Below, piece by piece: positions 482-33,774 of a stretch of DNA of 64,000 bases (its first letter is position 1; each line of letters opens with the position of its first letter). The position numbers and the translations under genes are program-made. A model generated the notes under the pieces. It ran no database searches, was not told where the DNA came from, and saw nothing but the letters and a program-made list of their open reading frames with translations. Origin of the DNA: Candidatus Hodarchaeota archaeon (GTDB lineage Archaea; Asgardarchaeota; Heimdallarchaeia; Hodarchaeales; Hodarchaeaceae); assembly GCA_029856365.1 (NCBI GenBank), contig JAHQWW010000003.1:32001-96000 (forward strand). Direction: 5' to 3'.

Positions 482-498
482 AAAGGATCACATTTGTT

Positions 499-4136: not shown

Positions 4137-4160
4137 TTAGTATTCATTCTAGAAATGAAC

Positions 4161-5015
4161 CTAGCATGTAACATCTTTCCCGCAATGAGGACATTTAATA
4201 GTTTTTTCCCTCTGGGTTCGTACAATAAATGCAGTCATCTTTCTCATTTCTTTTTGCATTGTATTGAGTTCAGTTATAATTCTCGTTTCAATACTGGTGT
4301 TAATTTGCTGATTCATCACCTCAGGAAGAGTAGAAATATTTTTAGTCAACTGTTCGGCTGCTAGTACTAATCTTTGAAGAGTTCCATCCTGTTTAGCCAA
4401 ACGTTCTGTCACAGATGTCTTTAATTCGTTGACGGATGACTCTAAGTAAATAGAGATACGATCACGCAGTGATGTCAATTCTACTTGGATTATTGCATTC
4501 ACTCGATCTCTAAGTTCAGCAACAGTGGTTAATTGATCAGTCTGATTCTCAATTAGGGCATTTAGATTACTTACAACGTTATCAAGTTTGTCTGAAATCA
4601 CTACGAAATTATTAATACTAGCTTCGAATCGGCCCTTGGTTTCTTCAGTAGATGAGTCTACCATTGTGGTGATATCATTGGATAACCTCCGCATACTCCC
4701 AACAACATCTTCCACGTAGCTAACTTTAATAAATTTCAGATCGTTCTTTGTTTCTTCAGCAGTTGTCACGAATGTCTTTTGAAAAGACCCAATGGATTCC
4801 TCAAGGTTAGAAATTACTGTAGGAAGGTTTTGGATTGAAACCTGTAAATCAGAACTGATTTTTGAAGTGTCAACTATTTGCTGGATCGTAATAAGCTTTT
4901 CATCAATACCATTTGTAAGTTGGAGGAGGTATTGTAATTCTGAGGGATCTTTAATGGTCTGTTTTAATTCCAATATCAGTTGCAATATCTCTTTAATGTC
5001 ATCTTCTAAGCCCAT
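4161..5015 (-). CDS. long coiled-coil protein with C-terminal zinc knuckle (CPHCG)
   Basis: Heptad-rich 284 aa; ends 'IKCPHCGKDVTC'; SD-like GAGG upstream. Confidence 0.7.
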   Translation of the reverse strand: MGLEDDIKEILQLILELKQTIKDPSELQYLLQLTNGIDEKLITIQQIVDTSKISSDLQVSIQNLPTVISNLEESIGSFQKTFVTTAEETKNDLKFIKVSYVEDVVGSMRRLSNDITTMVDSSTEETKGRFEASINNFVVISDKLDNVVSNLNALIENQTDQLTTVAELRDRVNAIIQVELTSLRDRISIYLESSVNELKTSVTERLAKQDGTLQRLVLAAEQLTKNISTLPEVMNQQINTSIETRIITELNTMQKEMRKMTAFIVRTQREKTIKCPHCGKDVTC

Positions 5016-5183
5016 ACTATTTCCTCACATCTTTTCACTATTGTTGAGTAATAAACTCAAAGATTCTAAAAGATTTTCGAAGCTTCAAGACTCCAGCAGT
5101 TAAAATTCTAATCTTTTATTAGGGTTAATTAAAGATGCCTAGTAAATGTCTTTGAATCTTATTACAATGTTCAGGGAAACAGG

Positions 5184-6269
5184 TTATTTCAAGCGTCTTA
5201 AAAACGTCACAAACTTGTCATTTTCTAACATTGTGTTATTTAATCGATTGATCATAATAATCGTTTCAGAGTAAATGAATTGCTTGAAATCATTCTCTGT
5301 GGCATTTTGTAAGTCTAGATAAATCTCTTTCACAACAGAAAATGAAATATTAGGTATTCTAGATTCTAGATCTCCTGTTCCGAGATTATAATTCTTTAAA
5401 ATACTGGAGGAGACACGAAGAGAGTCTTGCAGCTTTCGATTATCACCAGAGTACTCTGAAATACTCAGATAATAATTCTTTACAATATCTTGGACTTGTT
5501 CTTGTTCCAAAGATGTAAGACTTAATTCATCTTCACTAGGAAACAATCGACGGAGGTTTTGGAGTAAGCGTGCGGCGGGGGCTTCTCGTAAGAGCTTACC
5601 AATAAGATTCTTTAACTCAAAAGATGGAATCTGAATAATTTCACGTGGATTAGGGAGAGAAGATTCTGATTGAAGCTCGTAACGATGTAGCTCTTTACAT
5701 GCAGCAAAATAGTAATTAGGAAAACCCAAGTGAGACAAATTCGAATATGAGGAAAATAATTTGTCAATAGTCTCAACGATTCCCCATTTGTCCAGATATT
5801 CAGTATTTCGTAGAAATAGACCTATTTTTTCCTCTAGAGGCTTTGTTGTTTGAGGCATTCCTGAAGCTTCTGTTGGTGTTGAAATAGTAGAGTGTGCACC
5901 TAGTAATGAAGAAACTTCCAAATCGATTTTTTCTATTTTTTCTAGAATTTCCAAACCTGATTCCGGTTGTAAACGCATTTTAGAAAGAAATTCCTGGACC
6001 ATGGTTAATGTTTCAATTACATCATCATTTAGGCCATCCTCACTCCTTAAAGTTGTAACTAGTGTTGAAAGAAGCTTAATGAGTAAGAGATTCAAACCAA
6101 TGAGGAGATTGATCTTCTCCCCCATGTTACCTCGTGAAGTCCAAAAATTAAATGAGGGATACTTCTGTTTATCTTTATCAGGTGCCAAGTTCGATTGATT
6201 TCTAAGAAGTTCGTTAGAATCAGGTGAGTCTCGTGTAGATTCGAACCTTGGGTGATCATTTTCGTCCAA
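5184..6269 (-). CDS. hypothetical all-helical protein, 14 bp downstream of tubulin-family gene
   Basis: 361-aa ORF with tight spacing. Confidence 0.7.
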   Translation of the reverse strand: MDENDHPRFESTRDSPDSNELLRNQSNLAPDKDKQKYPSFNFWTSRGNMGEKINLLIGLNLLLIKLLSTLVTTLRSEDGLNDDVIETLTMVQEFLSKMRLQPESGLEILEKIEKIDLEVSSLLGAHSTISTPTEASGMPQTTKPLEEKIGLFLRNTEYLDKWGIVETIDKLFSSYSNLSHLGFPNYYFAACKELHRYELQSESSLPNPREIIQIPSFELKNLIGKLLREAPAARLLQNLRRLFPSEDELSLTSLEQEQVQDIVKNYYLSISEYSGDNRKLQDSLRVSSSILKNYNLGTGDLESRIPNISFSVVKEIYLDLQNATENDFKQFIYSETIIMINRLNNTMLENDKFVTFLRRLK

Positions 6270-6283
6270 CTTAATCCAGCACC

Positions 6284-7648
6284 TTATTCTGGTTTGATGT
6301 AGTAACCAAATAACTTCTCCAAATCATTAACCGCTGCATCTAATTCTTTCCTTGTTGTTCCTTTTGATCGTTTAAACCAATGTTGTTTCAATTCCGAGTC
6401 ACCACTATGAAGATTGATGAGTGCTTTGGCCTCCTCAAGAATATCATATAATTCTGGTATTTTTGGCAAACCAAATAATAGAAGGAGCGAGGCTCGTGTG
6501 GTATCATCATCATAGGCACAGTAAGTTGGAGAAATACTTGCACCCTTAGCTAAAAATGGTGTCAATGCCTTTTTCAAAAGTGGATCATACTCCACTCGTG
6601 CAATATTACGGGGACCACTGAGTACAGAGAAAACAGATGAAGCAGCAGGATTTGTTCCCATATTTGTCAAGCTACAGTTAGAAAGAGTGTATTCAACTGC
6701 AGTGGATAGTTGAGAGTCCATTCCTCCAATTTCTGGAAAAACGGATAAATCGTCAAACATTGCTGGTACAACAACGCTATCCAATTTCAATGCAAAGTCA
6801 CCAATATCGGTAGTAGGTAATACTTCCTTTCCGATTTCAGGTACTCCAGGAGACAACATTTCAGCAATCGATTCTAAAGCTAGAGGGTTGATTAGTTCAA
6901 CAAAAGCCTCTTCTATCTGAGCTGGATAAGCTGTTCCGTCTTGGCCGATAACAGTTGGAACACTGGAACTAACCTGCTCACTACTTAAATCAGCTAAATT
7001 CCTTCCGATTTGTCTACTCAATAAATCAACAGATTCCCCACGTTGCCAACTTAAAACCCGTTCAAGCATTGTTCTATTAGAAAGAAGAAGGATAAGATCT
7101 GGCCCCATGTTTCCTTCCTCTAGTTGGAGTCGCAATAATCTTGATAACGCCCAGACGCTATTAATCGCTTCAGAAGACTGGTTAACGAATGGTAAGACCC
7201 CAAAAACATAAATAAAAATTTTACGTTTCTCCTCTTCAGCAAAACGGTTTCTTAACAATCGTATTAAAGCAGGAGTTCCACCACATCCAGTACCTCCTCC
7301 AAAACTGGTAAAAATACAAAAACCACTGATTCCCTCGTAACCAAGCCCTTGTAACTGATTTAGTACAATATCCTGAGAATTCATAACTGCTTCATAACCC
7401 GCAGAAAATTTTCCACCTACTCCAATCTCTGCATCTGAATAAAGAAGTGTTCTCTTCTTGGAAATGGAATACTTCTTTCGTGCTTTTAACAAATCACCAC
7501 GATCAGTATTCATCACTAGATATTCTCTGATGCGCTGAGGTAACTCACCTTTTTTTGATTTGGCTAAATAACTACCTACTAAATTTGACCCACACTCACC
7601 AATACCGATTGCGAAGATTTCTGACTCTGTTCCTCCTTCAATTGACAT
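6284..7648 (-). CDS. tubulin/FtsZ superfamily GTPase (tubulin/CetZ-like)
   Basis: T1 'GIGECGSNL', 'NTD', signature 'GGGTGCG', 'VLPF', 'LLSN', T7-like 'TTDIGDF', C-terminal helices with HWF. Confidence 0.92.
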   Translation of the reverse strand: MSIEGGTESEIFAIGIGECGSNLVGSYLAKSKKGELPQRIREYLVMNTDRGDLLKARKKYSISKKRTLLYSDAEIGVGGKFSAGYEAVMNSQDIVLNQLQGLGYEGISGFCIFTSFGGGTGCGGTPALIRLLRNRFAEEEKRKIFIYVFGVLPFVNQSSEAINSVWALSRLLRLQLEEGNMGPDLILLLSNRTMLERVLSWQRGESVDLLSRQIGRNLADLSSEQVSSSVPTVIGQDGTAYPAQIEEAFVELINPLALESIAEMLSPGVPEIGKEVLPTTDIGDFALKLDSVVVPAMFDDLSVFPEIGGMDSQLSTAVEYTLSNCSLTNMGTNPAASSVFSVLSGPRNIARVEYDPLLKKALTPFLAKGASISPTYCAYDDDTTRASLLLLFGLPKIPELYDILEEAKALINLHSGDSELKQHWFKRSKGTTRKELDAAVNDLEKLFGYYIKPE

Positions 7649-7699
7649 TTCAACACGCTCTATTTGTATTATTTATCTATATATTCATTATTATATTGG

Positions 7700-10600
7700 C
7701 TATTTTTCCAGTTTAATACCAGATTTGATTTCAATAAGTAATTTCATTACTAGAGATAAGTACGATCGAATAACCTTATTATGAGGATATGTTTCTCTGA
7801 TTTTCTTAGATATTTCTTTATACTGTCGTGAGTTCTCCTCTCTGCTCTCCGTTGGGGTGTACCGAGGACGGAACATACGAATAGCATGATGCCAATGGTT
7901 CAATTGCACTGAAACCTTTTTCCATTCTTTTCTTTGTTCATCTATTAGTGGTATTAACTCCAGAATATATCTAAGATCATGAGAATCTAAGAATTCCTCA
8001 CGAGCTTTTACTAATTTAGATAAAGGAAAAATATTCTCAGACGCTTCCTCTGTATATCTCTTGAATACTTCCTGAATGTTAGAGTAATATTCTAAATTCC
8101 CCAACTCAATCTGTAGAGCAGCATTTCGATCTTTTTCAATTTTCTTCATGATTTCAATGACGGTCCCTCGTACTGAAACTAGTTCAAGTATTGCTTGTGT
8201 TAAGCGGCTAATGTGATTTGTTGTAGCAATTTCTTGAAATTGACTCAGATATGCAAGATCAACTCGTTCGTCTTGCCGTAAGTCAATTTGGTAATGATTA
8301 AATAAATATTCAACCGCATCTTGAATTTCAGTAATATAGCGTTTTCCCATGGATCTAATTTCACGACAAGCTTTTGTATCAGTTTGCAAGCGATCAATTT
8401 CAACAAAAACGTCAGTTATTTCCAGTAATTGGACATCTTCTTGATTTTTAACTATTACTTGGCTAAATGTTTCGATATATCCCCCGACATACTCGATAAT
8501 ATTGATCCCAACTTCTTTCAAATCATTAACATTTTTCAGAACCTTTCGTGATTCCTTTACACCATGTGCTAACAGAACAGCGACGATTTCTGTGTCATAC
8601 AAAAAAATTAGCTGCCGTAATTTGTGTGCTAACCGCTCATGGGACACTTCCTCGGCTTCAAAATCTGCAATTTTTTTCTCAGCACCAAAAACCCGATCAT
8701 CAAGCGGTGTTATTTCATTTATCCGTGGAAGACTGAGTCTTAGCCAATTGTAGAGATTTTGGTGAAGTGTAGCTAAGGAATCTTTCGCCATTTGCAAACT
8801 TTCCAAGCTATAACTTTCAAAAACGTTGACTAATCTGATAATATCCTTGTGAGTTTTAATCTCAGCCATTTTCTCGTTCATAAGTTTCAGGGTTTCTTCA
8901 AAAAAGATTGTATACTGGCTAGGAAGTTTAGAATAGTCCTGTATATGAGAGGATATTTCCCGTTCCATTTGTTCAGCCAATGTGGAAGCTTTTCGTTCAA
9001 CAAAAGCTCTTAATTGCCAAAATTCGGTTAAAGCTTCAGAATAATCAAGGTCATCAATTTCTCTATCAGTAGAATAGATTAAACTGCTTTTTCGAGATTT
9101 TAATAGCCTAAAAAGTCTTCTATCGACTCCCTCGAGATTTGTTATCTGCTTTTTTAATTCAATAAGAATTTCATTTTTATTTTCTTCAATCGTTTCAAGG
9201 AAAGAAATGTATTCTTTAATTACAGCCTCAATATTTCCTGATTCTGAATATTCATCAATTAAATCCACGATTTTACTGCGTTTTTCTCGTAGGTCAAATC
9301 GTGTCTCTATAGGAATTAATGGAAATGGAATCGACTTTAAATTCTCACGGATCCGTGAGGAAATCTTGTACTTCCAAACTGGAATCTTTTCATACTCATC
9401 TAAAAGCTCTTGGGTACTTTTTTGGGCAACAGCACTAGCCTCATCTCGGAATGATTTCAAATCGTCAACTGCAAGAATTGGAACATGAACCTTTAATTTA
9501 GGGGGAATTGTTTCTAGATTTATCAGTTGATTATAAATCGGATGTATTTCATTATCTATTTTATTCCAAAGTTCAGTTTTAATATTTGTATTAAGTCTAT
9601 GAAGTCTTTCGATTTCATGAACTAAGTCACGAATATCTATTTCTTCCACAATTTTATGTTTTCTTTGATATTCGATTTGATCTTTTAGGTCTTCAGATAG
9701 AATATCCCGTAAACTTTCACGTGAATCATAGAGATTCAACAAATTTTGTCTGAGACTTTGTTGAGCTGGTTTAGAAAAATAAGCAACCAGTCGAGTCTCC
9801 CAATCCTTTATTTCTCGAGCCTTACTACTTAATTCACTGGGTGATAAAGCCTCAAAATCGCGAATAATCGGTATTTGAGGCCCCTCACTTAAATTTATAA
9901 CTTCTTGGATGTGAGGATTTTCTAGTAATCTGAAGAAATAGTTTTGACACTCTTCAGCTAGAGCTGACTTCAATTCGTGATATCTTTTTGCGAGTTCTAC
10001 CCATTCCTGAAGGTCTCTTGTTTTCGCTGCCTCTTTTTCAATTGCTCGTATATCCTTAGTGAAATCAGATGGAACTGGTATCTTCATTGCACGAATAGCT
10101 TTAGAAGCGTTTATTAGTTCTGATGTACTGATCAGCTTCTTTGTAACAATAATTTGTTGTTGACGCCAAGAACGGATTTTCTCAATATCTTGGATTATAG
10201 TGGGTATATTTGTAGATGAAACATCTGTTTCTGGAACTGGTGAAAAAGAAGATTCCAGTCCTTCTCTTCCTGTAATCTGTATAATACGTCCGATTTGATC
10301 CTCAGTTTCTGTTTTTAATGAAATTTCATAAGTTCTTAGAGCATTTACGAATTCATTACTCAATGAATTCAATCTCTTTTCCAATGTGATGAGAGTTTCT
10401 ACTGAAGTTGTTTTTTCCGTACTGGCTTGAATATCTTGTATTTCCTCCTTCAGTACATCAATTTTTGCCCAAAGATCCAAACCAATTGAGGCTACTGTAT
10501 CGATATGTTGTTGTAACTCAGAAGACATTTGAATTATTGCCAGTTGGATTTTACCTTCTGTACCTTTTCTGCGCTGCTTTAAATATGCGTTTTCCGCTTC

Positions 10601-11218
10601 CAACTGACTATAGACTTCTAGTAAATCAGGAATAGTCATCACATGAATGCTTGTTTTTGTTGTTTGATTCGTTATTCGAATCTTTTCTTCATCAAAATTA
10701 ACAAATTTTCCATAAAGTTCGATAATCTCTCGATTAAACAATAATATAGATACATTTTTTCCTCTTAGAACCTCTGAAATCTGATTATAGGTTCTAAGCA
10801 CATTTGAACTAAATTTCACAATCTCTTTGATGTTAAAACTGGGAATTTGTAGTTTACGAATGGTTTCTGTCTCTTGGGGGATAAATTTGGCAATTTCTTT
10901 GATGTTATTTGCCAAGTCAAAGTAAATCTTACGATATCCAACTAAAAGGGTATTTAGTAAATCCTCAGATAATTTACCAAATTTCTCTTTATTTTGAGTA
11001 AGGGATCTTTTCATTCCCCTCTTTTTAAAGAATCCTGCTGTAGGCAAGTCTTTTTCCAATTTTTCGATTTCTATCACTAATTTTTGTGCTTCGTTTAAAG
11101 TGGAGACAGCTTGCACTGTTGGGTCAATTGATCGTAATTCAGTCACTAAATCTCGAATCTTATGAAGAACTTCCTTTGAAAGGAGTTCTCCTGCTTCCGA
11201 TGTCATATTGGCTGGCAT
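7700..11218 (-). CDS. 1172-aa helical-repeat / coiled-coil protein
   Basis: Almost entirely amphipathic helices with recurring units; no NTPase motif seen. Confidence 0.8.
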   Translation of the reverse strand: MPANMTSEAGELLSKEVLHKIRDLVTELRSIDPTVQAVSTLNEAQKLVIEIEKLEKDLPTAGFFKKRGMKRSLTQNKEKFGKLSEDLLNTLLVGYRKIYFDLANNIKEIAKFIPQETETIRKLQIPSFNIKEIVKFSSNVLRTYNQISEVLRGKNVSILLFNREIIELYGKFVNFDEEKIRITNQTTKTSIHVMTIPDLLEVYSQLEAENAYLKQRRKGTEGKIQLAIIQMSSELQQHIDTVASIGLDLWAKIDVLKEEIQDIQASTEKTTSVETLITLEKRLNSLSNEFVNALRTYEISLKTETEDQIGRIIQITGREGLESSFSPVPETDVSSTNIPTIIQDIEKIRSWRQQQIIVTKKLISTSELINASKAIRAMKIPVPSDFTKDIRAIEKEAAKTRDLQEWVELAKRYHELKSALAEECQNYFFRLLENPHIQEVINLSEGPQIPIIRDFEALSPSELSSKAREIKDWETRLVAYFSKPAQQSLRQNLLNLYDSRESLRDILSEDLKDQIEYQRKHKIVEEIDIRDLVHEIERLHRLNTNIKTELWNKIDNEIHPIYNQLINLETIPPKLKVHVPILAVDDLKSFRDEASAVAQKSTQELLDEYEKIPVWKYKISSRIRENLKSIPFPLIPIETRFDLREKRSKIVDLIDEYSESGNIEAVIKEYISFLETIEENKNEILIELKKQITNLEGVDRRLFRLLKSRKSSLIYSTDREIDDLDYSEALTEFWQLRAFVERKASTLAEQMEREISSHIQDYSKLPSQYTIFFEETLKLMNEKMAEIKTHKDIIRLVNVFESYSLESLQMAKDSLATLHQNLYNWLRLSLPRINEITPLDDRVFGAEKKIADFEAEEVSHERLAHKLRQLIFLYDTEIVAVLLAHGVKESRKVLKNVNDLKEVGINIIEYVGGYIETFSQVIVKNQEDVQLLEITDVFVEIDRLQTDTKACREIRSMGKRYITEIQDAVEYLFNHYQIDLRQDERVDLAYLSQFQEIATTNHISRLTQAILELVSVRGTVIEIMKKIEKDRNAALQIELGNLEYYSNIQEVFKRYTEEASENIFPLSKLVKAREEFLDSHDLRYILELIPLIDEQRKEWKKVSVQLNHWHHAIRMFRPRYTPTESREENSRQYKEISKKIRETYPHNKVIRSYLSLVMKLLIEIKSGIKLEK

Positions 11219-11516
11219 CCTTCGATAATGAGGTGTAGTCTCTTTTCATTACCACTTAGGTAGAGGGTTCTTTATATGTTTCAGTATTATACACACACTA
11301 TACTTTTCCCCTTTTTTAAATTAATCAAATAATCAAACACTCTGTGGATCTAAAATGCCTTTATTAGCTATACCGCTGGCAAAAACTAAGGGAAAATCAA
11401 CTTAATTTACATAAAAAAAGGTATGACTCATGAAAGTATGAAAGAAAAATTTAAGCAATTATTTATAAGAGAAAAGAAATTAAATTTCAAGATAAGGCTA
11501 AACTATCAATTCATGT

Positions 11517-12338
11517 TTGAAGGTTGAAAGATTGCTGAACGCATTGTTAATCTCAATAGGAAATGAGTTACTATCAGGTAAAACTATCAATACAAATGCG
11601 ACTTATCTTGCGAAAAATCTTACAAATTTAGGATTTGTCGTAAAAAAAATCATTACTGTTCCTGATGATCCAGAAATTGTACCAATCGAGATTTCTCACG
11701 CACTCTTATCGAATGATTACCGAATTATTCTTATAACGGGAGGTTTAGGTCCGACTTGGGATGACTCAACAGCATTCTTTCTATCAAAAGCACTAGGTGT
11801 TGACACAGAACTTAACGCTAAAGCTTTATCAATAGTTACACAACGCTACCAAGTTTTATTCAATAAAAAACTGGTAGAAACGTCTGAAATTACCCCAGCA
11901 CGAAAAAAAATGGCAATTCTACCAGTAAACGCTGATCCTATTGATAATCCTGTTGGGACTGCCCCTGGAATCTTTTTTAACCATAAAGACTCAAATACAT
12001 GGATTTTCTGTCTTCCTGGGGTACCTCGGGAAATGAAGGCAATGTATCTTTTAATTGAGTCCGAAATTATGGCTTTAATAAAAGAGAAACATATGAGTTA
12101 CTATGAAACAGAATTTACATCATCGTTCACAGATGAATCTTTACTTGCCCCGTTTTTAATACGAGTGCGTCAAAAGTATGATGTGTGGATAAAATCACTT
12201 CCAGAAGCTTATCAAGAGGAAAAAAATATTCGCTTAATTATATCAAAATCAGCAGACTCAGAGGTGGATGCGAAGAAAGAAGTTATGGATGCAAAAGCAT
12301 ACCTCCAAAAATTATTAGATTTATCACATAATTCCTAG
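11517..12338 (+). CDS. cinA: CinA-like molybdopterin-binding-domain protein
   Basis: 'IGNELLSGKTINTN', 'TGGLGPTWDD', 'NPVGTAPG', 'LPGVPREM'. Confidence 0.9.
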   Translation: MKVERLLNALLISIGNELLSGKTINTNATYLAKNLTNLGFVVKKIITVPDDPEIVPIEISHALLSNDYRIILITGGLGPTWDDSTAFFLSKALGVDTELNAKALSIVTQRYQVLFNKKLVETSEITPARKKMAILPVNADPIDNPVGTAPGIFFNHKDSNTWIFCLPGVPREMKAMYLLIESEIMALIKEKHMSYYETEFTSSFTDESLLAPFLIRVRQKYDVWIKSLPEAYQEEKNIRLIISKSADSEVDAKKEVMDAKAYLQKLLDLSHNS

Positions 12339-12586
12339 TGAAGTAATAGTGTAACCCATATATGTAGGAAAATTACTAGGAACAACTGAATGAATTGCAG
12401 TTAATATCTAATGTCTAAACTTTGTATAGAAAATAAATATAGAAGAAAAACTTTACAAGAGTGATAGCTGAATATCATACACAGTGTTGTTGTTTTCACT
12501 TAGATCACCATCTTTGTTAGACTATTTAAATGAGATCAAACTAGGATTTAATTGCAGAAAAATGGCATTGGAGAATTGCTTGCCAA

Positions 12587-14893
12587 ATGAGCGACGATAA
12601 TGATTCAAAATTACTACTACTAAAAGTTGCAGAGGCGAACCAGGGGGACGTGGGACGAGGATTGGTTCGCATAGATTATTCCATCATGCGGGAAAATGGA
12701 TTAGAAACAGGAGATATAATTGAAATCTCTAGTGAGAGAGCTAATGGAAGAAAAACAGGTGCCTTGGTCATACCTGGAAGACGAGAAGATCGGGGGAAAA
12801 ATATCATCAGGATGGATGGGTTAATCAGAGGGAATGTGGGGACAAGTTTAGGTGAAACTGTTCGAATTCGGCAAATCAAAAAACGAGAAGCAAATCGTAT
12901 CACTATAGCACCTGCAGAAGAACGTATTAGGCTTTTAGTTAGATCAGAAATTATTCGTGAACGTTTACAGAATCATCCAGTCTCACGTGGTGATTTACTG
13001 GTTATAACGGGGCAAATCCGTAAGATTCCTCCCTCTGGAGGATCCAGTGGAACAGGAATGGATGATTTCATCTCTCGTTTCTTCGGCGCATCAAGTCCCG
13101 TATCTTTGGGTGAGATTAAAGTTGTGGTCGTTGCAACGGACCCAGAAGGCATTGTTACGGTAGGAGATACAACAGAAGTCAATATTGTTGAAGAAGCTCC
13201 TAAGGATCTTCGAATGATGCCACGAGTGACATACGAGGATATTGGTGGCCTATCGGAGGAAATTAAGCGTGTGAGAGAGATGATCGAGCTTCCGATGAAA
13301 CATCCCGAACTCTTTGAAAGGTTAGGGATCGATCCTCCAAAAGGTGTCTTATTACATGGACCTCCAGGTACAGGAAAAACATTACTTGCCAAAGCTGTTG
13401 CAAATGAATCAGGAGTTAATTTCGTATCAATTGCTGGGCCCGAAATTATGTCAAAATTTTATGGAGAGAGTGAACAACGAATTCGTGAGATTTTTGAACA
13501 AGCTGAGAAAGACGCCCCAAGTATTATTTTTATAGATGAATTAGATTCAATCGCAGTAAAAAGGGAAGAAGTCACTGGAGAAGTAGAAAGACGAGTTGTT
13601 GCTCAATTGTTGGCCTTGATGGATGGTTTAAAGAGTCGTGGTAAAGTTATAGTTATTGGGGCAACGAACCGGCCTAATGCACTCGATCCTGCCTTGCGAA
13701 GACCTGGACGATTTGACAGAGAAATTGAAATTGGGGTTCCAGATAGAAATGGGCGTTATGAAGTCTTGTTGGTTCATACAAGAGGAATGCCTATTGATGA
13801 AGATGTCGATTTAGAAGAATATGCTGCTAAAACACATGGTTTTGTTGGAGCAGACATCGCTGCTCTTACAAAAGAAGCTGCAATGCATACTCTTCGAAAA
13901 GTTTTACCAAAAATTGATTTTGATAAACCTCTCACGCCAGAAATTCTTTCAAAATTAGTTGTCTCGAAAGAAAATTTCGATGAAGCACTTAAAATTACAG
14001 AGCCCTCAGCTATGCGCGAAGTACTGTTGGAGATTCCAAATATTCACTGGAAAGATATTGGGGGTCTTGAAGGGGTGAAACAACAACTTATTGAAGCTGT
14101 AGAATGGCCCATTATTTATCCTGAGATGTTTAAGCGCCATGGTATTACCCCTCCCCATGGTATTCTTCTTTATGGTCCACCTGGGACTGGAAAGACCCTC
14201 TTAGCCAAAGCTGTTGCTACTGAAAGCCAAGCAAATTTCATAGCAATTCGTGGGCCTGAGTTTCTGTCAAAATGGGTTGGTGAAAGTGAAAAAGCTGTTC
14301 GTGAAGTTTTTAGGAAAGCTAAACAAGCATCTCCTTCTATTATATTTTTAGACGAGCTTGATGCCATTGCTCCTCGCCGAGGAGTATTTGCTGGTGGTAG
14401 CCACGTCACGGAGAGTGTTGTGAACCAAATATTATCATTACTAGATGGTTTAGAGAATCTTCGTGATGTTGTTGTACTAGGTGCAAGTAATCGACCAGAT
14501 ATGATCGACCCAGCTCTCCTCAGACCAGGGAGGTTTGATCGATTATTATTGGTGAAGCCTCCTGATACTGAATCTCGAGAAAAAATCCTACAGATTCATA
14601 CAAATGCAATGAGGCTGGCGTTGGATGTCAACATTTCCCAACTTGCTAGTGACTTAGATGGATATGTAGGTGCAGATATAGCTGCAATTTGCCGTGAAGC
14701 TGTTATGATTGCACTCCGTGAAGATTTAAACACGGAATTAATAGAAAAACGTCATTTTTTTGAAGCAAAAAAAGCCATTCATCCCAGCATTAGTGATAAG
14801 ATTATCAAAGAATTTGAAGAATTAGAACGTAAGCTTTTAGGGAAATCGGAAATTGGACGGAAAGATGTATTAGGATTGAAAGATTATCTCTGA
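12587..14893 (+). CDS. cdc48: Cdc48/VCP-family AAA+ ATPase
   Basis: N-domain plus two AAA modules (GPPGTGKT twice, FIDELD/FLDELD, RPGRFDR twice). Confidence 0.98.
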
Positions 14894-15073: not shown

Positions 15074-16024
15074 TCACTTGGTATTATCTGCAGATCGAAT
15101 TATTGGTTTATAAATGTCTAAAGGCCACTGTTTCTCCATCAATTTCAGAAGCACACGTGAGTCAAATTGATCAATCTCAATCGAAGCTGATGCTGTTTTC
15201 ATTAATCGTTCAGCTATCAATTTTGATCGTACGACGGAATCGGAGTACCCTATTATGAGTCCAATCACTAAAGGATGATTTTTCACTATAACAAGCTGAA
15301 GATCGGAAGCTGTTATTACTTCCATTCCAGTTGGATTCTTTGATAATTCTTTCACTGTTTCACTAATACCCAAATTTAGCTGATCCAGGATAGGACGTTC
15401 TATATTTATGAATTTCGTAGTATAGATCTGATGTGTTTCGAGATCAATTAAAATTACTACTCGTACTTTACATTTGAATGTGGATTCAACTCCAGCCAAT
15501 ATATCGGCTATCCAGTCAAATGCATCATAAAAATTCTCACCAGTCTTTGCTGATACCCGAAATAAGCCTACAGGTCTATCTGATCTTTGCGCGCGAGGTA
15601 AATCAAGATCCTGTACAATTAGATCAAAAGCTCGAGCCCCCTCTAAGTCAATTTTATTAGCAATGAAGAGAACAGGGGCTTTCTCGTTTCTCTGAATGGA
15701 ATCCCAGAAAGCCTCTGATGCTTCTGTGATACGAATATCAGCACTATCAAGTACAAAAACGATTGCTGACGCTTTTTCTAGAGAATCATGCCATAAAAGG
15801 TTACGGTATATCTCTTGTCCACCTAAATCAACCAAATTGAACTCAATTTGACGATATCTCACGGTTCGATAGTTGACACCGAGGGTTCGTGTTGTAGGTA
15901 CAAATTCTGAACGTAAAAGTCTATTAACGATTGTGGTTTTACCAGCGCCGTCGAGACCAATAATGGTAATCTCATATTTCTCGACCTTTTTTCCTTTGAA
16001 AATTCTTCGCAATATACTCGACAC
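15074..16024 (-). CDS. Arf-like small GTPase fused to C-terminal roadblock/longin-like domain
   Basis: N-terminal amphipathic helix; G1 GLDGAGKTT, G3 DLGGQ, G4 NKID, G5 SAK; about 140-aa alpha/beta extension. Confidence 0.88.
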   Translation of the reverse strand: MSSILRRIFKGKKVEKYEITIIGLDGAGKTTIVNRLLRSEFVPTTRTLGVNYRTVRYRQIEFNLVDLGGQEIYRNLLWHDSLEKASAIVFVLDSADIRITEASEAFWDSIQRNEKAPVLFIANKIDLEGARAFDLIVQDLDLPRAQRSDRPVGLFRVSAKTGENFYDAFDWIADILAGVESTFKCKVRVVILIDLETHQIYTTKFINIERPILDQLNLGISETVKELSKNPTGMEVITASDLQLVIVKNHPLVIGLIIGYSDSVVRSKLIAERLMKTASASIEIDQFDSRVLLKLMEKQWPLDIYKPIIRSADNTK

Positions 16025-17937: not shown

Positions 17938-19197
17938 CTAAAAGAAATCATCTAATGTTTTTCGATTTAAAATGGGGCTTTGATGATAATAAAATCTCAT
18001 TGGAATTGTTAAATTCTCACCAATAAATTGAAGTGCCTGTTGCAAATTATCAAAACACTGATATGGATTGTTGACTGCTTTACGCATGTTTTCCCGGACT
18101 TGCCAAACACCCAATGGAATTGAATATCCCTTTCCAACCTCACGAAAAGCAACCACTGCGGCTTTACGCCTCATTTGTACGAGCTTTTCTTGTACAGCTA
18201 ATCTAGCAGCATAATAACCTCCAACAGTATTAGTTGCGTAAGTTTTTCGTCCATTTGGCCCTTCAGTATCAGTTGAAATTCCTGGAGTTGAACTAGTAAG
18301 ATTCCAAGCACTCTTTTTTTTCCATGTTTCATGATAATCGAAGTGCCACTCACGCCTAGGAATAAATAGAACCCAAAAATCATTATCCAAGTAGGAATTA
18401 TGAAAAACCATATAATCTTGAATTTCAGGATAGTCTTGAATTTGTCTCCTGAGATGATTACCAGTCATATCGTCAACAGCTGTGATACTCCACCTTGTAG
18501 GTACAAACTTTCGATTTTTAGTCAAACCTAATAAGCCAGCAGATAATATTCTTGATATTTGAGTGACTGTTGCCTCTGTTTTATATAGTTCTGTGACTGC
18601 AGAGACAGCATTCAAATCAGAATCACTTACAACTCGATCGACTTTATGATCGACTTTAGGTGTTGTTGTCAATTGGATAGAGTCTATATTAATACGAGCA
18701 CCCATAGGTTGGGTGAAACGATCGAAATTTATGTCTAACCGAGGTTTTTTAGAGAATTTTACTTCCAAATCAATAGGAGATGAAGATTGGATTTGTTCCT
18801 GTGTGATTTCAAGGATTTTTGTGGACGAGGTTATATCTGTGACTTTGATTGGTTCAGCTATAAATCGAAATAACTTTGCTCGGAGGTTAACTATGTCTTC
18901 TAATGACATATTTGTCTGCCAAATATCAGGTTCATCGATTACCTGAATATTTTCCCAGTTAATTGCTGCCATTGGTCCTAATCTAACCTTAGGATATCCG
19001 AATCTACCAACAAACAAGCTCGGAGGGCTAGGCCCATAGTATTCATTTTTTAATTTAGGTAAGATCTTCCTAACGGGCAATAGGGCCTTTGTTTTAAGAA
19101 TTATGGGACAATAGGAAAGACCACATAAAAATTTCCCGCCCTTACAGCGTAAACAGAGCTCTTTGTTTGTAGATAATTTAACCATGATTTCACTCAC
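17938..19197 (-). CDS. nreA: Nre-family PCNA-interacting DNA repair protein
   Basis: N-terminal 'CLRCKGGKFLCGLSYCP', 'FVGRFGYPKV', 'VPTRWSITAVD', 'GGYYAARL', 'GVWQVRE'; C-terminal PIP-like 'RKTLDDFF'. Confidence 0.93.
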   Translation of the reverse strand: MSEIMVKLSTNKELCLRCKGGKFLCGLSYCPIILKTKALLPVRKILPKLKNEYYGPSPPSLFVGRFGYPKVRLGPMAAINWENIQVIDEPDIWQTNMSLEDIVNLRAKLFRFIAEPIKVTDITSSTKILEITQEQIQSSSPIDLEVKFSKKPRLDINFDRFTQPMGARINIDSIQLTTTPKVDHKVDRVVSDSDLNAVSAVTELYKTEATVTQISRILSAGLLGLTKNRKFVPTRWSITAVDDMTGNHLRRQIQDYPEIQDYMVFHNSYLDNDFWVLFIPRREWHFDYHETWKKKSAWNLTSSTPGISTDTEGPNGRKTYATNTVGGYYAARLAVQEKLVQMRRKAAVVAFREVGKGYSIPLGVWQVRENMRKAVNNPYQCFDNLQQALQFIGENLTIPMRFYYHQSPILNRKTLDDFF

Positions 19198-19245
19198 TAA
19201 GTACTTTATATAGACTCATTGCTCTTTACACAGATAATATCTTTT

Positions 19246-20631
19246 TTAAAGTGTTTTTTGAACTGGTTTTGAGGAACGAGTCACATTCACATTTTTATAA
19301 TTTCCTTTCTGACCAATTATCAAAGTCCCATATACTCCATCAAACCCATAGGGATGAAAAGTGAAATTACCAGCTTTAACTTGTAGAATTGCTTCAATTA
19401 TCGATGTTTCTATTTGACCATGAAGTTTTGCTTCAACTTCTTCAGAAGTAAGTTGCCATAAAATCCGTTCAGGGCCTATATAACTTGTAATTCGCCGATA
19501 TTGATTAATTAAAGACTTAGCTGTCTTAGTTCTTATATTTAAGACATGACTTAAGATATCTATTAATGGTACCATACGAATGAATTTTTTTGGTGGTTTT
19601 TCTTCCCCAAGTACTCTTTTTCCTTTTTGAGTGTTACTAATCTCAACACATCTCTGGAAGACCCCGATTGTTAACGGTTTTTTACAAATTGGGCAAATAT
19701 CATCTAATGGTACGTGTTGAGGAGAAAAATAACAATAATCATTATCACCGTGTAAACCAGGGCGTTTCCTTCCTGCACGATGACCAGTTAAAAAAAACCT
19801 TCCTTCTTCTGGAGGAAATTCAACTGTATATAACACTTGATTATTACGTAGAGCTAATACTATACTTTGATAATCAAATTTCGATACAGAAAGAACAGTG
19901 AATTCACGGCCCATCCTATGTAAGGCACTTGAGTGAGCATCTGAATTTGATATTAATGTTCTATCATCTAATTCAGGAATTAATGCTAAGAATTCGGGAT
20001 CAGCGGATAACCCAGTCTCAAAAACGTGTAATCTTGAAGTTGCTGAAGCGAAAAAATCTGATAAATAGTTAATACGAATATTGCCTTTCCCAGATCCGAA
20101 AACTCCTTGGGGTGTCATAATATGAGCTGGAATAGCCTCGATCCATGGATCTAAATCTAAAATGGCGTGAATTCGTTCTGCAACTTGATCTGAAGATTGA
20201 CATGTAATAAAAGGTCTTGCCATTTTATGGTGTTTAACCCCCCATTGGTCCAATAAAACTCTAAATGTTTCTATTAAGGGAAAATTTGGAAATAGAAAGA
20301 TTACATGTGTTTCTTTAGAATATTCTCCTATCTTTGCCGTGAAAATCATTTCCGTCTGCAAAATAAACCGAGTTTGATTATTATTTTGGAGAAAAAATAC
20401 TCCTTTCATATCTTCAATAAGAGCTTCCTTGAGAATATCAGTCCACATTGTGAATTGACAATCTCCTGTCCCAATCAAGTCAACGCCTTTTAATGGCATT
20501 GTCTGATTCGTTTTTGCTAAATGTAAAATTCCTTTTTTCCGATTTATAAGCTTAGTTTCTGGTTTAATTCCAAGGCTTTGAGTTCCACCAGCAAAAATAG
20601 AATGAGCGTGTAAATCTACCGCTACTTCCAA
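19246..20631 (-). CDS. endoQ: endonuclease Q family (PHP domain + Zn finger)
   Basis: 'DLHAHS', 'GTGD', 'PAHIMTP', 'ETGLSAD', 'NSDAHS...GREF', CPIC, 'GFDGVYG'. Confidence 0.88.
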   Translation of the reverse strand: MEVAVDLHAHSIFAGGTQSLGIKPETKLINRKKGILHLAKTNQTMPLKGVDLIGTGDCQFTMWTDILKEALIEDMKGVFFLQNNNQTRFILQTEMIFTAKIGEYSKETHVIFLFPNFPLIETFRVLLDQWGVKHHKMARPFITCQSSDQVAERIHAILDLDPWIEAIPAHIMTPQGVFGSGKGNIRINYLSDFFASATSRLHVFETGLSADPEFLALIPELDDRTLISNSDAHSSALHRMGREFTVLSVSKFDYQSIVLALRNNQVLYTVEFPPEEGRFFLTGHRAGRKRPGLHGDNDYCYFSPQHVPLDDICPICKKPLTIGVFQRCVEISNTQKGKRVLGEEKPPKKFIRMVPLIDILSHVLNIRTKTAKSLINQYRRITSYIGPERILWQLTSEEVEAKLHGQIETSIIEAILQVKAGNFTFHPYGFDGVYGTLIIGQKGNYKNVNVTRSSKPVQKTL

Positions 20632-20646
20632 TAATCGTTCTCCTCA

Positions 20647-21978
20647 TTAAATATTAAGTTTATTAGGCATATTACTATTATCATTATTGTTTGAGTCAGG
20701 TTTTACTTGATATTCTAACACCTGCTCACTGACTAGTTTCAATAGTCCTACTCCTTTAGTAGAATCACCGACCATGAAGAGAGAAGTATCTTTCGTGTTA
20801 TTTGTTGCCCACCTTAATGCAATGGCGTTCGATCCATGTTGGGACAATACCATTTGAACCAAATCAGTACGAAACAATCGTGAGCTAATATTGTTAATTG
20901 CTATGAAAATCTGGCATATAAACGCATGTTTTCTTGCTACACGAATAGTGCTAGCGCGGAGTGTGTCAACTTTGTCCATACTACACCGTAAAAGGGAAAC
21001 ATCTGTAATAATTGGTTTAAAGCTTTTGAGTAATTCGAAACTCTTATCTAAAAACTGATTTTGAGGATATAGTTTGATTTCATCATTAATTGACATTGAA
21101 TATCTCGAAATATAAGGTTGTGAAATATTCGAGCCTTGTATATTCAAATGCCATAAAATTTCCCGAAAGGTTCTGAATAAACTCCCAAGGCGCCCTTTGC
21201 CTGAACTAAATGCAATGATAAAATTATTCCTAATATATATTAAATAGAATTGTTGATTACTGTAAGTTTTCCCATGTATTTCGATGGGAAGCGCATCAAA
21301 GAAGGTTCCAAATGTCTTTAACTCACGCTCATAATCTTGTAGGAGTGTAGGAATTGTATTCACTAAAGAAATTATATCTGGAGACAGAATGATGTTATGA
21401 AGAGCTCGAATGGTTCCATCTGAAACCAAAACCGTCTCCGTATCTGTACAAATTTCACTAATTCGATTTTGAAGGGTATGATCAATTTTAGTTAAAAGAA
21501 CTTTCCTAATGTTACTGAACACCTTGTTTAATGAATAGGCTTCTTGCTTACTGTTGTTTTGAAATTTTATTTCTCGGATGGCTTCTTGAAGAATATTTGA
21601 GAAAGCAAGAGAATGTTGCAATAATTTGTCCTGATGAATGCGTGGGATAAATAGCATGAAACTTTCAATTCGATTTTTTCCTCTAGCTTTAGGATCCTCA
21701 ATTGTGAAAGAGTGGATCAATACACGGCCGCGGATACCTGTAACATTGATTGGTATTATTGCAGTCTCAGACTCTCCTGTTGGTTCACCCACACCAATTG
21801 CCATCGTAAATAACGTTGTTGTGATACCTTGAAGAATAATTGTCGGGATTTCTAACTCATGGGTCAAATGAGATTTTAATACAGGACCATGTTCTTCATC
21901 AAAGACTATATGGGCCAAAAAAAATTGAATAGGAATATCTTCTGACGTTTCGGAAGTTCCCATGATATTAGGTCTCAC
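20647..21978 (-). CDS. uDENN/longin (folliculin/SMCR8-like) domain protein with degenerate roadblock-like C-terminal domains
   Basis: 'HIVFDEEHGP' and 'HSFTIEDPKARGKNR' motifs. Confidence 0.72.
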   Translation of the reverse strand: MRPNIMGTSETSEDIPIQFFLAHIVFDEEHGPVLKSHLTHELEIPTIILQGITTTLFTMAIGVGEPTGESETAIIPINVTGIRGRVLIHSFTIEDPKARGKNRIESFMLFIPRIHQDKLLQHSLAFSNILQEAIREIKFQNNSKQEAYSLNKVFSNIRKVLLTKIDHTLQNRISEICTDTETVLVSDGTIRALHNIILSPDIISLVNTIPTLLQDYERELKTFGTFFDALPIEIHGKTYSNQQFYLIYIRNNFIIAFSSGKGRLGSLFRTFREILWHLNIQGSNISQPYISRYSMSINDEIKLYPQNQFLDKSFELLKSFKPIITDVSLLRCSMDKVDTLRASTIRVARKHAFICQIFIAINNISSRLFRTDLVQMVLSQHGSNAIALRWATNNTKDTSLFMVGDSTKGVGLLKLVSEQVLEYQVKPDSNNNDNSNMPNKLNI

Positions 21979-22168: not shown

Positions 22169-22465
22169 CTAAGATTCAGACTCTTTCTTCTTTATCAAAT
22201 CGATTATATCCTCCCATTCTTGCTCTTGCTTTTGTTTTTTTGGAGGATTTAAACGATTTTCTACTCCTAGAATATCTAACGCCCATTGGCGCTCTTTTTC
22301 ACGTTTTTGCAACTTCTTTTTTTTTCGATGTTCAGCTGCATTGATCCAAGTCTCTAATGCTGCTTCCTGTATTCCACATTTAGTACAAACATACAATCTT
22401 TCCTCAGGATTCCAAAAAAGGGTTCCATTCTTGCAATTAGGGCAAGGAATTCTTGAATCGCGCAC
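22169..22465 (-). CDS. small zinc-ribbon protein with basic helix
   Basis: CPNC...CTKCG. Confidence 0.75.
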   Translation of the reverse strand: MRDSRIPCPNCKNGTLFWNPEERLYVCTKCGIQEAALETWINAAEHRKKKKLQKREKERQWALDILGVENRLNPPKKQKQEQEWEDIIDLIKKKESES

Positions 22466-22486: not shown

Positions 22487-22981
22487 TCACTTCTCCATTG
22501 ACAGAATGTTATCTAGTTCTTTCTGAGTAATAGATAAGGATGAAATTTGTGATTGAGGACGCTTTGAAGGAGGCCATTGTTGTATTATCTGCATTATTGA
22601 ATCAATAGCTGGGCCAATTATCAACTTCAAGAGCTCAAGATCCACATAAGGATCTGTCAAGACTCCTAAGAAAGCGATACGCCCAATTGCTCGTAAAAAT
22701 AATTTAAAATTATTTCTTTCTGCAGTGAAAGAAACCCAGGGGGAACTCCCAATTTCGTGTCTAATGGTATCCATGTTCGATTGAATTCCAGCCACTAAAG
22801 AACAGAGAATAAGACTGCTTTCTTTACCTAGCGTACCTTCTAAATTCGCCTCTTCAATTAGAAGTCCATCTGTATCTACACAGAAACCTGAATAAATACC
22901 ATCTAGAGAGTTCACGATGTCAGTTAATACTTGTCGAAGTCCAGTTTTCGATTGTCTTGAATTATCATTGGAAAAGGTCAA
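22487..22981 (-). CDS. roadblock/LC7 (MglB/LAMTOR-like) protein
   Basis: 'LDGIYSGFCVDTDGLLIE', 'FLGVLTDPYVDLELL'. Confidence 0.85.
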   Translation of the reverse strand: MTFSNDNSRQSKTGLRQVLTDIVNSLDGIYSGFCVDTDGLLIEEANLEGTLGKESSLILCSLVAGIQSNMDTIRHEIGSSPWVSFTAERNNFKLFLRAIGRIAFLGVLTDPYVDLELLKLIIGPAIDSIMQIIQQWPPSKRPQSQISSLSITQKELDNILSMEK

Positions 22982-31868: not shown

Positions 31869-32186
31869 TTAGCCTGATCTGTCTTTTAAAACAACAATAG
31901 TGAAGCCAGCTGCTTCGTCAGGGGTGATGATTATTTCTGATTTAGGCATCTCTACGTATACACTTTGAAGTCGTCCATGATCGAGGGCATCTGAAACACT
32001 ACGAACCTTTTTTACTAGTGAAGCCACATGAGCAGATACTCTTTCGGCATCTGACTGTGGAAGATTACTTTGGAGTGGCAAACCATCTTCATCACAAACC
32101 AGTATCCCTTTAACCCCACGTCGTGCGGCTAATCTTTTAATTGTGTTCTGTAACACCGAGGGAATTACATATTCATCATTTGACAT
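31869..32186 (-). CDS. roadblock/LC7 protein (dynein light chain roadblock-like)
   Basis: 'TIKRL...GVKGILVCDEDGLPLQSNL...KVRSV...EIIITPD'. Confidence 0.92.
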   Translation of the reverse strand: MSNDEYVIPSVLQNTIKRLAARRGVKGILVCDEDGLPLQSNLPQSDAERVSAHVASLVKKVRSVSDALDHGRLQSVYVEMPKSEIIITPDEAAGFTIVVLKDRSG

Positions 32187-32202: not shown

Positions 32203-32550
32203 TTAATCCTTGGACGTTAGTGTCATTTTACTGCTCTCCCGTTTCACTAACGCCACAATAATAATTTCTGAGTCATAATCAGGGATTATCTCAACATCAC
32301 CTACTTCCAATTCTAACCGTACGCTTCGAGCTTCTTCTTGTGAGATTTCCCTAGAAATACTTCTCACCTTCCCCACCAAAGAGGCAACGTGAGCAGCCAC
32401 TCTCTCTGTATCCTCTTCAGGAAGAGAAGATTGGAGTGGTAAACCATCTGTATCACTTAATACGGCACCATATACTCCCTTATGCTTTCCGACTGATTCA
32501 ATGACCTTCTCCAACGCCTGTTGTGATAAATACCCTGCTTCTTGTGCCAT
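32203..32550 (-). CDS. roadblock/LC7 protein, tandem paralog
   Basis: 'HKGVYGAVLSDTDGLPLQSSL...AHVASLVGKVRS...EIIPD'. Confidence 0.92.
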   Translation of the reverse strand: MAQEAGYLSQQALEKVIESVGKHKGVYGAVLSDTDGLPLQSSLPEEDTERVAAHVASLVGKVRSISREISQEEARSVRLELEVGDVEIIPDYDSEIIIVALVKRESSKMTLTSKD

Positions 32551-33225: not shown

Positions 33226-33774
33226 TTATTCAGAAGTAAAATCTAGTATCTTTGTTCCCAGCTGGTTAAAGGCAGCTTGTACACCCTCACCAGTTTTCGC
33301 ACTGGTTTCAATGAAATTCAGCCCTAAACGGTCAGCAAGTGCTTTACCTTCATCTGTAGATACTGTTTCGGTTCCTTCCTCACGTAAGTCACTTTTATTT
33401 GCGAGGAGGATTACGGGAACGTCCCTATCACGTTTGGAATTTTCTCGGATATCATTTAACCATTTTTCTACATTCTTAAAGGTTTGATGGCGTGTAATGT
33501 CATAAACAAGAATTCCACCAAATACTTTGGTATAATATGCTTTTACAACATCTTTAAAAACAGGCTGCCCAGCAAGATCCCAGATTTGCCAGCGAATGTG
33601 TGTTTCTTTTACTGTTGTATCATACAAGGCAAAATCTGCGCCCATTGTACTTAGATAATCTGTTTCGAACCCCTCACCTAGGTAACGTTTACGCAGTGAG
33701 GTTTTTCCAACTGCTCCATCTCCAATTAACACAATTTTCCATAAGCGATGATCCTCATTACTCAACAATTCCAC
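33226..33774 (-). CDS. Rab-like small GTPase
   Basis: GDGAVGKTS, YLSTMGADF, WDLAGQ, NKSD, ETSAK; no C-terminal Cys. Confidence 0.93.
   Translation of the reverse strand: MELLSNEDHRLWKIVLIGDGAVGKTSLRKRYLGEGFETDYLSTMGADFALYDTTVKETHIRWQIWDLAGQPVFKDVVKAYYTKVFGGILVYDITRHQTFKNVEKWLNDIRENSKRDRDVPVILLANKSDLREEGTETVSTDEGKALADRLGLNFIETSAKTGEGVQAAFNQLGTKILDFTSE

Follow-up and report, generated by a model that had tools for sequence, protein, structure and literature searches.

Folliculin (FLCN), SMCR8, and NPRL2 turn off the Rag and Arf GTPases by which nutrient signaling at the eukaryotic lysosome is controlled, and their origin is a question of eukaryogenesis. The Hodarchaeales are of interest here, since Eme and colleagues reportedly placed them in 2023 as sister to eukaryotes. 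The question of whether an archaeon of this order possesses a GTPase-activating protein (GAP) of the same kind is raised by a minus-strand open reading frame (ORF) in a 64,000-nt stretch (hereafter, the window) of contig JAHQWW010000003.1 of Candidatus Hodarchaeota archaeon (GCA_029856365.1); coordinates are window positions unless another locus is named. The initial annotation described the product of this ORF, the target of the present analysis, as a folliculin/SMCR8-like longin that retains the catalytic arginine finger and is followed by two roadblock-like segments instead of a DENN body. Our analysis confirmed that the N-terminal domain is a folliculin/SMCR8-type longin. Together with the two roadblock-type domains behind it, this “GAP longin” suggests that the gene encodes a cytoplasmic regulator of a small GTPase.

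The N-terminal longin and its motifs

The Pfam model PF11704 (Folliculin) matched residues 82–151 with an expectation value (E) of 5.9e-7; its score of 29.9 bits lies above the curated cut-off of 23.3. When the 25 family members were scanned singly, the match exceeded the cut-off in 24 of them, and the target was the sole protein above it in its own genome. Residues are numbered here for the protein of 438 amino acids (aa), which gives values five less than those counted from the GTG codon selected by the ORF caller. A structure was predicted with AlphaFold2 (AF2) from the family alignment, the first row of which (P0001) equals the window protein except for one residue (H80 for R80); the full-length model had a predicted local distance difference test score (pLDDT) of 84.6 and a predicted template modeling score (pTM) of 0.82. 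Domain 1 of this model comprised strands 14–22 and 26–35, helix 41–56, strands 66–74, 77–89, and 97–107, and a helical stretch at 108–137. This topology, beta-beta-alpha-beta-beta-beta-alpha-alpha, corresponds to the longin order.

Comparison of domain 1 with solved structures using VIA-align demonstrated that FLCN-type longins ranked 3–4 Z units over other longins. The closest were the longin of Kluyveromyces lactis Lst4 (Z 14.9), the Lokiarchaeal longin 8yqg (Z 14.7), and FLCN itself (6nzd_H; Z 14.2, root mean square deviation (rmsd) 2.4 A over 136 aa, 18% identity). Chains of the C9orf72–SMCR8–WDR41 complexes followed at Z 12.8–13.5; these are not the SMCR8 chains (6lt0_B and 7o2w_B) and are most likely C9orf72. 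The longins of TRAPP, GATOR1 (NPRL2/3, Z of about 10), sedlin, DENND1, and Ykt6 scored 9.4–10.9, and longin domain 1 (LD1) of the tri-longin proteins scored 7.6–8.2.

Direct translation yielded both segments quoted in the initial annotation, LAHIVFDEEHGP at 21918–21883 and HSFTIEDPKARGKNRIESF at 21714–21658, as well as the arginine at codon 21684–21682, exactly as claimed. In the AF2 model, the GP dipeptide opens strand 2 and Arg94 is located in the beta4–beta5 loop, where the annotation had expected it. Its conservation was also borne out: Arg94 is invariant among the homologs and, like GP, is kept in all 23 genome copies that were extracted. Of the 17 columns that do not vary in the family alignment, 15 fall in domain 1, including G26, P27, D90, and R94. 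When three architectures carrying this longin were aligned (alignment A3), the invariant columns were F, G, P, R, and one L. The mean identity between near and far subgroups of the family was 53% in domain 1, as compared with 29% and 19% in domains 2 and 3, respectively. In addition, helix 1 and the next loop, TTTLFTMAIGVGEPTGE (residues 48–64, 21772–21822, minus strand), are near-invariant in the Hodarchaeales family. This conservation is absent from the two other types of folliculin-type longin described below, the G116 type and the giant-protein tails, and the segment may be a family-specific interface.

FLCN is the catalytic subunit of the FLCN–FNIP GAP for RagC/D (yeast Lst7; PDB 6nzd, 6ulg, 8dhb); its R164 acts on RagC/D, and R147 of SMCR8 acts on Arf. 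The eukaryotic motifs that the annotation had named are present in solved structures, namely G15-P16 and R164 (in SLARGFQR) of FLCN in 6ulg_L and R147 (in DLEARGFVR) of SMCR8 in 6lt0_B. The target thus resembles FLCN in its longin fold, its PF11704 match, the GP before strand 2, and the arginine of the beta4–beta5 loop. The pattern D-x-x-A-R-G-x-x-R around Arg94 is common to FLCN R164 and SMCR8 R147, and 9 of the 19 residues in this region are identical to human FLCN. Unlike FLCN, the target lacks a long insert (68 residues from GP to Arg, as against 149 in human FLCN), carries two roadblock-type domains with no DENN detected, and has no FNIP-like partner that we could find. The GP and A-R-G signature is also shared with SMCR8, an Arf/Rab GAP in complex with C9orf72 and WDR41, and with NPRL2 of GATOR1, both of which differ from the target in their C-terminal body and partners.

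According to the main text of PMC12290439 (Traffic 2025), GP and Arg mark the GAP longins and are absent from the longins of FNIP2, NPRL3, TRAPP, and DENND. The same text states that Asgard, notably heimdallarchaeial, longins of FLCN/SMCR8 type keep GP and the arginine finger, and it puts forward a common ancestry and a possible function as GAPs of ArfR or Rag GTPases. Folliculin N-terminal domains were reported in Lokiarchaeia by Bulzu et al. (10.1101/385732), and Asgard folliculin-type longins with GP and Arg were published by Liu et al. (2020 preprint, 10.1101/2020.10.19.343400). The target belongs to this class, for which the core idea of the initial annotation is already in print (PMC12290439; preprint of Liu et al.).

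The ORF as called, 20647–21978, encodes 443 aa if read from GTG. That codon (21976–21978) is part of a Shine-Dalgarno-like sequence, GGTGA, 11 nt 5' of the ATG at 21963, and a near-identical database protein and all homologs start at the corresponding Met. These observations argue that the ATG at 21963 is probably the true start and the GTG at 21978 is unused, which yields the 438-aa protein and turns Arg99 of the initial annotation into Arg94. A scan with sigma-70 promoter models and for terminators was uninformative here, the host being an archaeon.

The C-terminal roadblock-type domains

The annotation had further claimed that the longin is followed by two roadblock-like segments and by no DENN body; two roadblock-type domains were indeed found, and no DENN body was detected. 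In the AF2 model, residues 162–277 (domain 2) and 303–420 (domain 3) each show the order alpha-beta-beta-alpha-beta-beta-beta-alpha, which is that of the roadblock fold. A second model of residues 150–423 alone, built with the window sequence as the first row, reproduced the same elements (pLDDT 88.3, pTM 0.89). The motifs SGKGRLGSL and STKGVGLL, both present in the translation of the 443-aa ORF, occupy an equivalent position in domains 2 and 3, respectively, after the last strand and before the last helix.

Domain 3 matched LAMTOR2/p14 (2zl1_B) with Z 8.4 and 110 of 116 residues aligned. All of its top 40 fold matches were roadblock proteins, including LAMTOR2, Asgard roadblock proteins (those of MK-D1), MglB, the C-terminal domains of Rag/Gtr proteins, and dynein LC7. 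Domain 3 is a complete roadblock fold that covers the whole of its matched structures (Z 7–8.4 for LAMTOR2 p14, MglB, the Asgard proteins 7yh1 and 9jue, and the Rag/Gtr C-terminal domains); it differs from these proteins in being embedded in a larger one and in lacking a Pfam Robl_LC7 match. The fold matches of domain 2 were weak, the most relevant being a chain of Mon1–Ccz1 (7qla_A, Z 5.5), and its assignment as roadblock-like therefore follows from topology. Neither domain matched Pfam PF03259 (Robl_LC7) at E up to 10, BLASTP found no internal repeat between the two, and a search of the ESM Atlas gave no usable match.

A likeness of the C-terminal part to the PH-like proteins BBS5 and RanBP3 was also considered (E 0.0025 in PDB; Pfam BBL5 E 0.022, below the cut-off; RanBP3 E 0.06). 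It was judged to be due to chance, because both AF2 models show the strand-helix topology of roadblock domains in this region. No DENN model of Pfam matched the target and no DENN chain appeared in the fold lists, absence from which does not by itself exclude a family. Elsewhere in the genome, one weak sub-threshold Pfam match to DENN was obtained, and NPR2 had no match in the genome.

The publications on the Asgard class (PMC12290439, Liu et al., Bulzu et al.) describe it by its longin motif or by a “longin + DENN” layout, and in PMC12290439 the word “roadblock” occurs in the reference list only. The literature searched, which covered that article apart from its 15-protein sequence supplement, contained no description of a longin–roadblock–roadblock protein or of a tri-longin-like layout in Asgard archaea. 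The class of the target is therefore already published, and what looks new is the body of two roadblock domains that replaces DENN.

Distribution, related architectures, and gene neighborhood

A word-index search returned 75 homologs. Each came from a Hodarchaeales/Heimdall-type Asgard assembly and was annotated as “hypothetical protein.” The HMMER profile of the family found 18 proteins among 1.84 billion representatives, all of them family members or fragments of these. At the genome level, the full-length profile matched 20 of the 21 other genomes of the genus and both genomes of the sister family, i.e., 22 of 23 other Hodarchaeales. None of 375 genomes elsewhere in the phylum yielded the three-domain protein, and four of them gave weak matches to the longin part. 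In its own genome, which is 84% complete, the target is single-copy.

The longin itself occurs in other architectures. A second, weak match obtained with the family profile lies on contig C52 of the target's genome, where two neighboring giant ORFs encode proteins of 1536 and 1227+ aa with immunoglobulin-like (Ig-like) domains. Both have one membrane crossing and a terminal domain of ~145 aa with the motifs FDQV.GP and NPEARGG at the same spacing as in the target; a third neighbor of 996 aa has a related tail without either motif, below the search threshold. A profile built on the A3 alignment revealed eight giant ORFs in this genome (1186 to >2971 aa, some with Ig-like domains) that end in a transmembrane helix and a folliculin-type longin of ~145 aa; GP is present in all eight tails and ARG or SRG in seven. 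The genome also encodes a 186-aa stand-alone longin without Arg, which, like the giant-protein tails (two of them without the Arg motif), is a possible partner. The products of the giant ORFs have the appearance of receptor-like proteins that carry a “GAP longin” on the cytoplasmic side, and they might anchor the target at the membrane or act as its partners. The A3 profile matched 149 of 399 genomes of the phylum, a number that partly follows from the construction of A3, the motifs having been checked in the target's own genome only. Two longin-like ORFs of that genome (346 and 362 aa) were rejected as partners, being too weak and having neither motif.

Other Asgard lineages attach different bodies to this longin. 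Genome G116 has three tandem genes, each with a Pfam Folliculin match and the motifs FDE..GP and DEKARGKER; the products of the first two are 69% identical, and the C-terminal body of this type, in which a repeat (IVW.LLS.NF) occurs internally, bears no relation to the roadblock body of the target. Two proteins of family f7 (loci L035 and L037) have Folliculin above the cut-off together with GP and [AS]RG. Their C-terminal two thirds show no detectable similarity to the target despite the near-equal length, and hhalign likewise found no similarity between the target's C-terminal portion and the folliculin-type proteins of G116 and f7. In genome G134, a single polypeptide combines a longin bearing GP and DESARGK with a Gtr1/RagA-type GTPase (Pfam E 2.4e-20), a Rosetta-stone hint that longins of this class have Rag-like GTPases as their partners. 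The initial annotation had regarded the target as an ancestor-type archaeal GAP with its own Ragulator-like domains. The longin and the roadblock-type domains of that proposal stand on Pfam, AF2, and fold evidence; “ancestor-type” is not supported, as the three-domain form was found in one order only and the longin is rampantly shuffled among domain contexts.

The target is preceded on the minus strand by genes for a 164-aa roadblock-like protein and, 21 bp further on, a 98-aa zinc-ribbon protein, from which it is separated by an AT-rich spacer of ~205 bp; it is followed after 15 bp by a PHP-like TIGR00375-family gene and, after another 48 bp, by Nre (Table 1). Throughout the genus, the target is probably co-transcribed with these DNA-repair-type genes, with no functional link apparent. 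Within the genus, synteny extends over the whole block, which includes genes for IF-2B, a 316-aa Arf-like GTPase, and CDC48; synteny confined to one genus is not independent evidence. The small roadblock gene adjoins the target in 19 of the 21 genomes of the genus. Beyond it, a roadblock copy (33% identity, E 1e-19) lies on the same strand ~2 kb from the target in G078, and in G079 a weak roadblock homolog of 169 aa (E 2e-6) is encoded 24 bp upstream. Across the order (three genera), it is the small roadblock gene alone that keeps the linkage.

The annotation had suggested the GTPases encoded at 15074 and 33226 for pairing with the target; within-genus synteny is at most what ties them to it. 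The first is the 316-aa Arf-like protein, the 141-aa C-terminal extension of which had no Pfam match. This extension was found in every one of the genus's 21 genomes and, as a weak match on proteins that are about as long, in all 12 of family f7. With the extension in f1, weakly in f7, and not in f2, the protein does not track the target and was discarded as a co-occurring partner. The second, a Rab-like GTPase (33226–33774), lies near a MarR-type regulator and two adjacent small genes on the minus strand, 32203–32550 (Robl_LC7 E 1e-15 in a direct scan) and 31869–32186 (Robl_LC7 in the genome-wide scan). This is another GTPase–roadblock neighborhood within the window.

Table 1. Positions and supporting evidence of the features discussed; window coordinates, except in rows that name another locus.
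Feature	Position	Strand	Evidence or remark
Folliculin-type longin and two-roadblock protein, 438-aa coding sequence	20647..21963 (stop codon included)	-	ORF call, starts of homologs, Shine-Dalgarno-like box
Domain 1, longin fold of FLCN/FNIP/SMCR8/C9orf72 type, residues 14–137	21553..21924	-	AF2 model, fold comparison, PF11704
GP motif Gly26-Pro27, start of strand 2	21883..21888	-	Invariant in the family alignment, 23 genome copies, and three architectures
Arg94, candidate arginine finger in D-x-x-A-R-G, loop between strands 77–89 and 97–107	21682..21684	-	Invariance, AF2 model, translation
Domain 2, roadblock-like by topology, residues 162–277	21133..21480	-	AF2 models; weak fold matches
Domain 3, roadblock fold, residues 303–420	20704..21057	-	AF2 models; LAMTOR2/p14 match
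164-aa small roadblock-like protein, candidate partner subunit	22487..22981	-	Pfam Robl_LC7 E 0.008, below cut-off
98-aa zinc-ribbon protein, Lys/Glu-rich tail	22169..22465	-	Conserved within the genus only
PHP-like TIGR00375-family gene, then Nre gene	17938–20631	-	Spacings of 15 bp and 48 bp
316-aa Arf-like GTPase	15074–16024	-	Best solved relatives of Arf type: 8oun, 8oum, 8oul
Giant ORFs of contig C52 (G000:C52:5000-20000)	3550–6540, 6544–11154, 11177–14860	-	Remaining giant ORFs on C199, C119, C155, C158, C135, C147
G116 tandem genes, 372, 375, and 166 aa (L023, G116:C1:634000-648000)	5091–6209, 6515–7642, 7896–8396	+	Pfam Folliculin, both motifs
Family f7 protein, 444 aa (L035)	508–1842	+	Folliculin above cut-off, GP and [AS]RG
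Family f7 protein, 448 aa (L037)	346–1692	+	Folliculin above cut-off, GP and [AS]RG
Longin–GTPase fusion, 469 aa (L036, G134:C1:3013000-3015500)	451–1860	+	N-terminal longin with both motifs, Gtr1/RagA-type GTPase

Proposed mechanism and competing explanations

We consider it reasonably likely that the target acts on a Rag-like or Arf-like GTPase as a GAP subunit with an arginine finger and that it assembles via its roadblock domains, probably with the linked small roadblock protein; this reading draws on sequence comparison and the AF2 models. Domain 1 would pair with a second longin or with a roadblock surface, and the resulting platform would allow the GTPase to dock. Candidates for this pairing are another copy of the target, the 164-aa roadblock protein, and the membrane-anchored folliculin-type longin tails of the giant proteins. 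Arg94, next to the GP motif, would enter the nucleotide pocket and speed GTP hydrolysis in the manner of FLCN R164 and SMCR8 R147. Assembly would fall to the two roadblock domains, in analogy to Ragulator and to domains 2 and 3 of Mon1/Ccz1-type proteins.

Several observations weigh against such an activity. The longins of Lst4/FNIP and of the C9orf72 side, which lack the arginine, match domain 1 as well as that of FLCN does, and the invariant Arg94 could be structural instead. FLCN was not found among PDB sequences at E up to 10, either by phmmer with the whole protein or its N-terminal 160 aa or by hmmsearch with the family profile and the broadened longin profile (A3), and the family profile retrieved no eukaryotic folliculin from the 1.84 billion representatives. 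Since the profiles miss FLCN, the sequence link is carried by the Pfam model (~30–34 bits) together with the fold and the motifs. To our knowledge, the eukaryotic longin GAPs are all heterodimers, as against the one full-length copy in the 84%-complete genome of the target; no full-length paralogous partner was found there, the other match of the full-length profile being the tail of a giant protein. With regard to the substrate, the extension of the neighboring Arf-like GTPase was found in neither of the two sister-family (f2) genomes, though the target is present in them. The genome also encodes more than 50 small GTPases, including at least eight strong Gtr1/RagA-type genes, and the substrate is therefore not readable from the genome layout. 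Tran et al. drew the same conclusion on the substrate from the layout of another Asgard genome (PMC10933270).

An alternative that we regard as possible, if rather unlikely, is that the target is a non-catalytic scaffold or adaptor, which would bind the longin tails of the giant proteins or the roadblock domains of Rag-like proteins and localize GTPases in a Ragulator-like manner without speeding hydrolysis. Roadblock folds of the assembly type make up two thirds of its domains, and its gene is linked to that of a small roadblock protein. The eight giant single-pass membrane proteins are possible partners by analogy with the FLCN–FNIP and SMCR8–C9orf72 pairings, and the near-invariance of residues 48–64 in the target family only suggests a family-specific binding surface. 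However, this explanation does not account for the invariance of GP and Arg, the marks of the catalytic site, across all architectures. Moreover, scaffolding and catalysis are not exclusive, as FLCN does both.

The domain order suggests another function. The best full-length Foldseek matches of the target were the tri-longin Rab regulators Fuzzy/Inturned, Mon1/Ccz1, and HPS1/HPS4, with E of 2e-8 to 1e-5 over 460–520 columns (7q3e_B, E 1.9e-8; 9lol_B, E 4.9e-8; also 8zwc), as compared with E of ~3e-4 for FLCN. These proteins match all three domains in order, and they also lead when the two C-terminal domains are searched alone (9rs7_A, E 3.6e-5, 294 columns). The subunits of Mon1–Ccz1, Fuzzy–Inturned (CPLANE), and HPS1–HPS4 (BLOC-3) consist of a canonical longin, a roadblock-like domain, and a lamtor-like domain (PMC11947305), which is the order of the target. 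The target might accordingly act as an exchange factor or effector platform for a Rab-like GTPase, the arginine serving binding or stability; longin platforms are more commonly guanine nucleotide exchange factors (GEFs) than GAPs (PMC10933270). We find this improbable, because domain 1 is far nearer to the FLCN type (Z 13–15) than to the Mon1/Ccz1-type LD1 (Z of about 8), and multi-domain superpositions on tri-longins were poor (rmsd 8.5–11 A, template modeling scores of 0.16–0.25). The Mon1, Ccz1, Fuz, Intu, and HPS families of Pfam were unmatched at E up to 1, at which Folliculin and the sub-threshold BBL5 were returned. Tri-longin proteins are GEFs without an arginine finger and heterodimers of two paralogs, whereas the target has GP and Arg, which the main text of PMC12290439 gives as specific to GAP longins, and a second tri-longin paralog was not found in its genome. 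The target and the tri-longins thus have the fold order in common, with neither a common geometry nor a common sequence family demonstrated.

Finally, it is very improbable that the resemblance to folliculin is convergent or due to chance and that the target is a generic Asgard longin/roadblock protein: although such folds are very common in Asgard genomes (130 Asgard clusters of orthologous genes, asCOGs; Liu et al.) and eukaryotic FLCN escapes the family profile, the Folliculin model exceeds its cut-off in nearly all family members and in separate Asgard lineages, almost half of the residues around Arg94 coincide with human FLCN, and FLCN-type longins clearly outrank the others in fold comparison.

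As a candidate GAP subunit that keeps both marks of the catalytic site, the target is a practical object for a first biochemical test of the archaeal “GAP longins” for GAP activity and for the GTPases they would act on. It is small, soluble, single-copy, and highly conserved, and thus tractable. Were its arginine to prove non-catalytic, what has been inferred in print for the Asgard class as a whole would lose strength. In addition, the longin–roadblock–roadblock layout is otherwise known from Mon1/Ccz1-type Rab regulators only, and its combination here with a folliculin-type longin leads to a hypothesis that links two families of eukaryotic regulators. In its boldest form, which we offer as a doubtful conjecture, the target would be a surviving archaeal “tri-longin” with a live GAP longin, and two eukaryotic families at present regarded as distinct, the FLCN/SMCR8/NPRL2 longin GAPs and the Rab GEFs of tri-longin type (Mon1–Ccz1, Fuzzy–Inturned, BLOC-3), would descend from one pre-eukaryotic longin–roadblock–roadblock ancestor. 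The protein would then dock on the tails of the giant receptors and couple the cell surface of these archaea to Rag-like GTPases.

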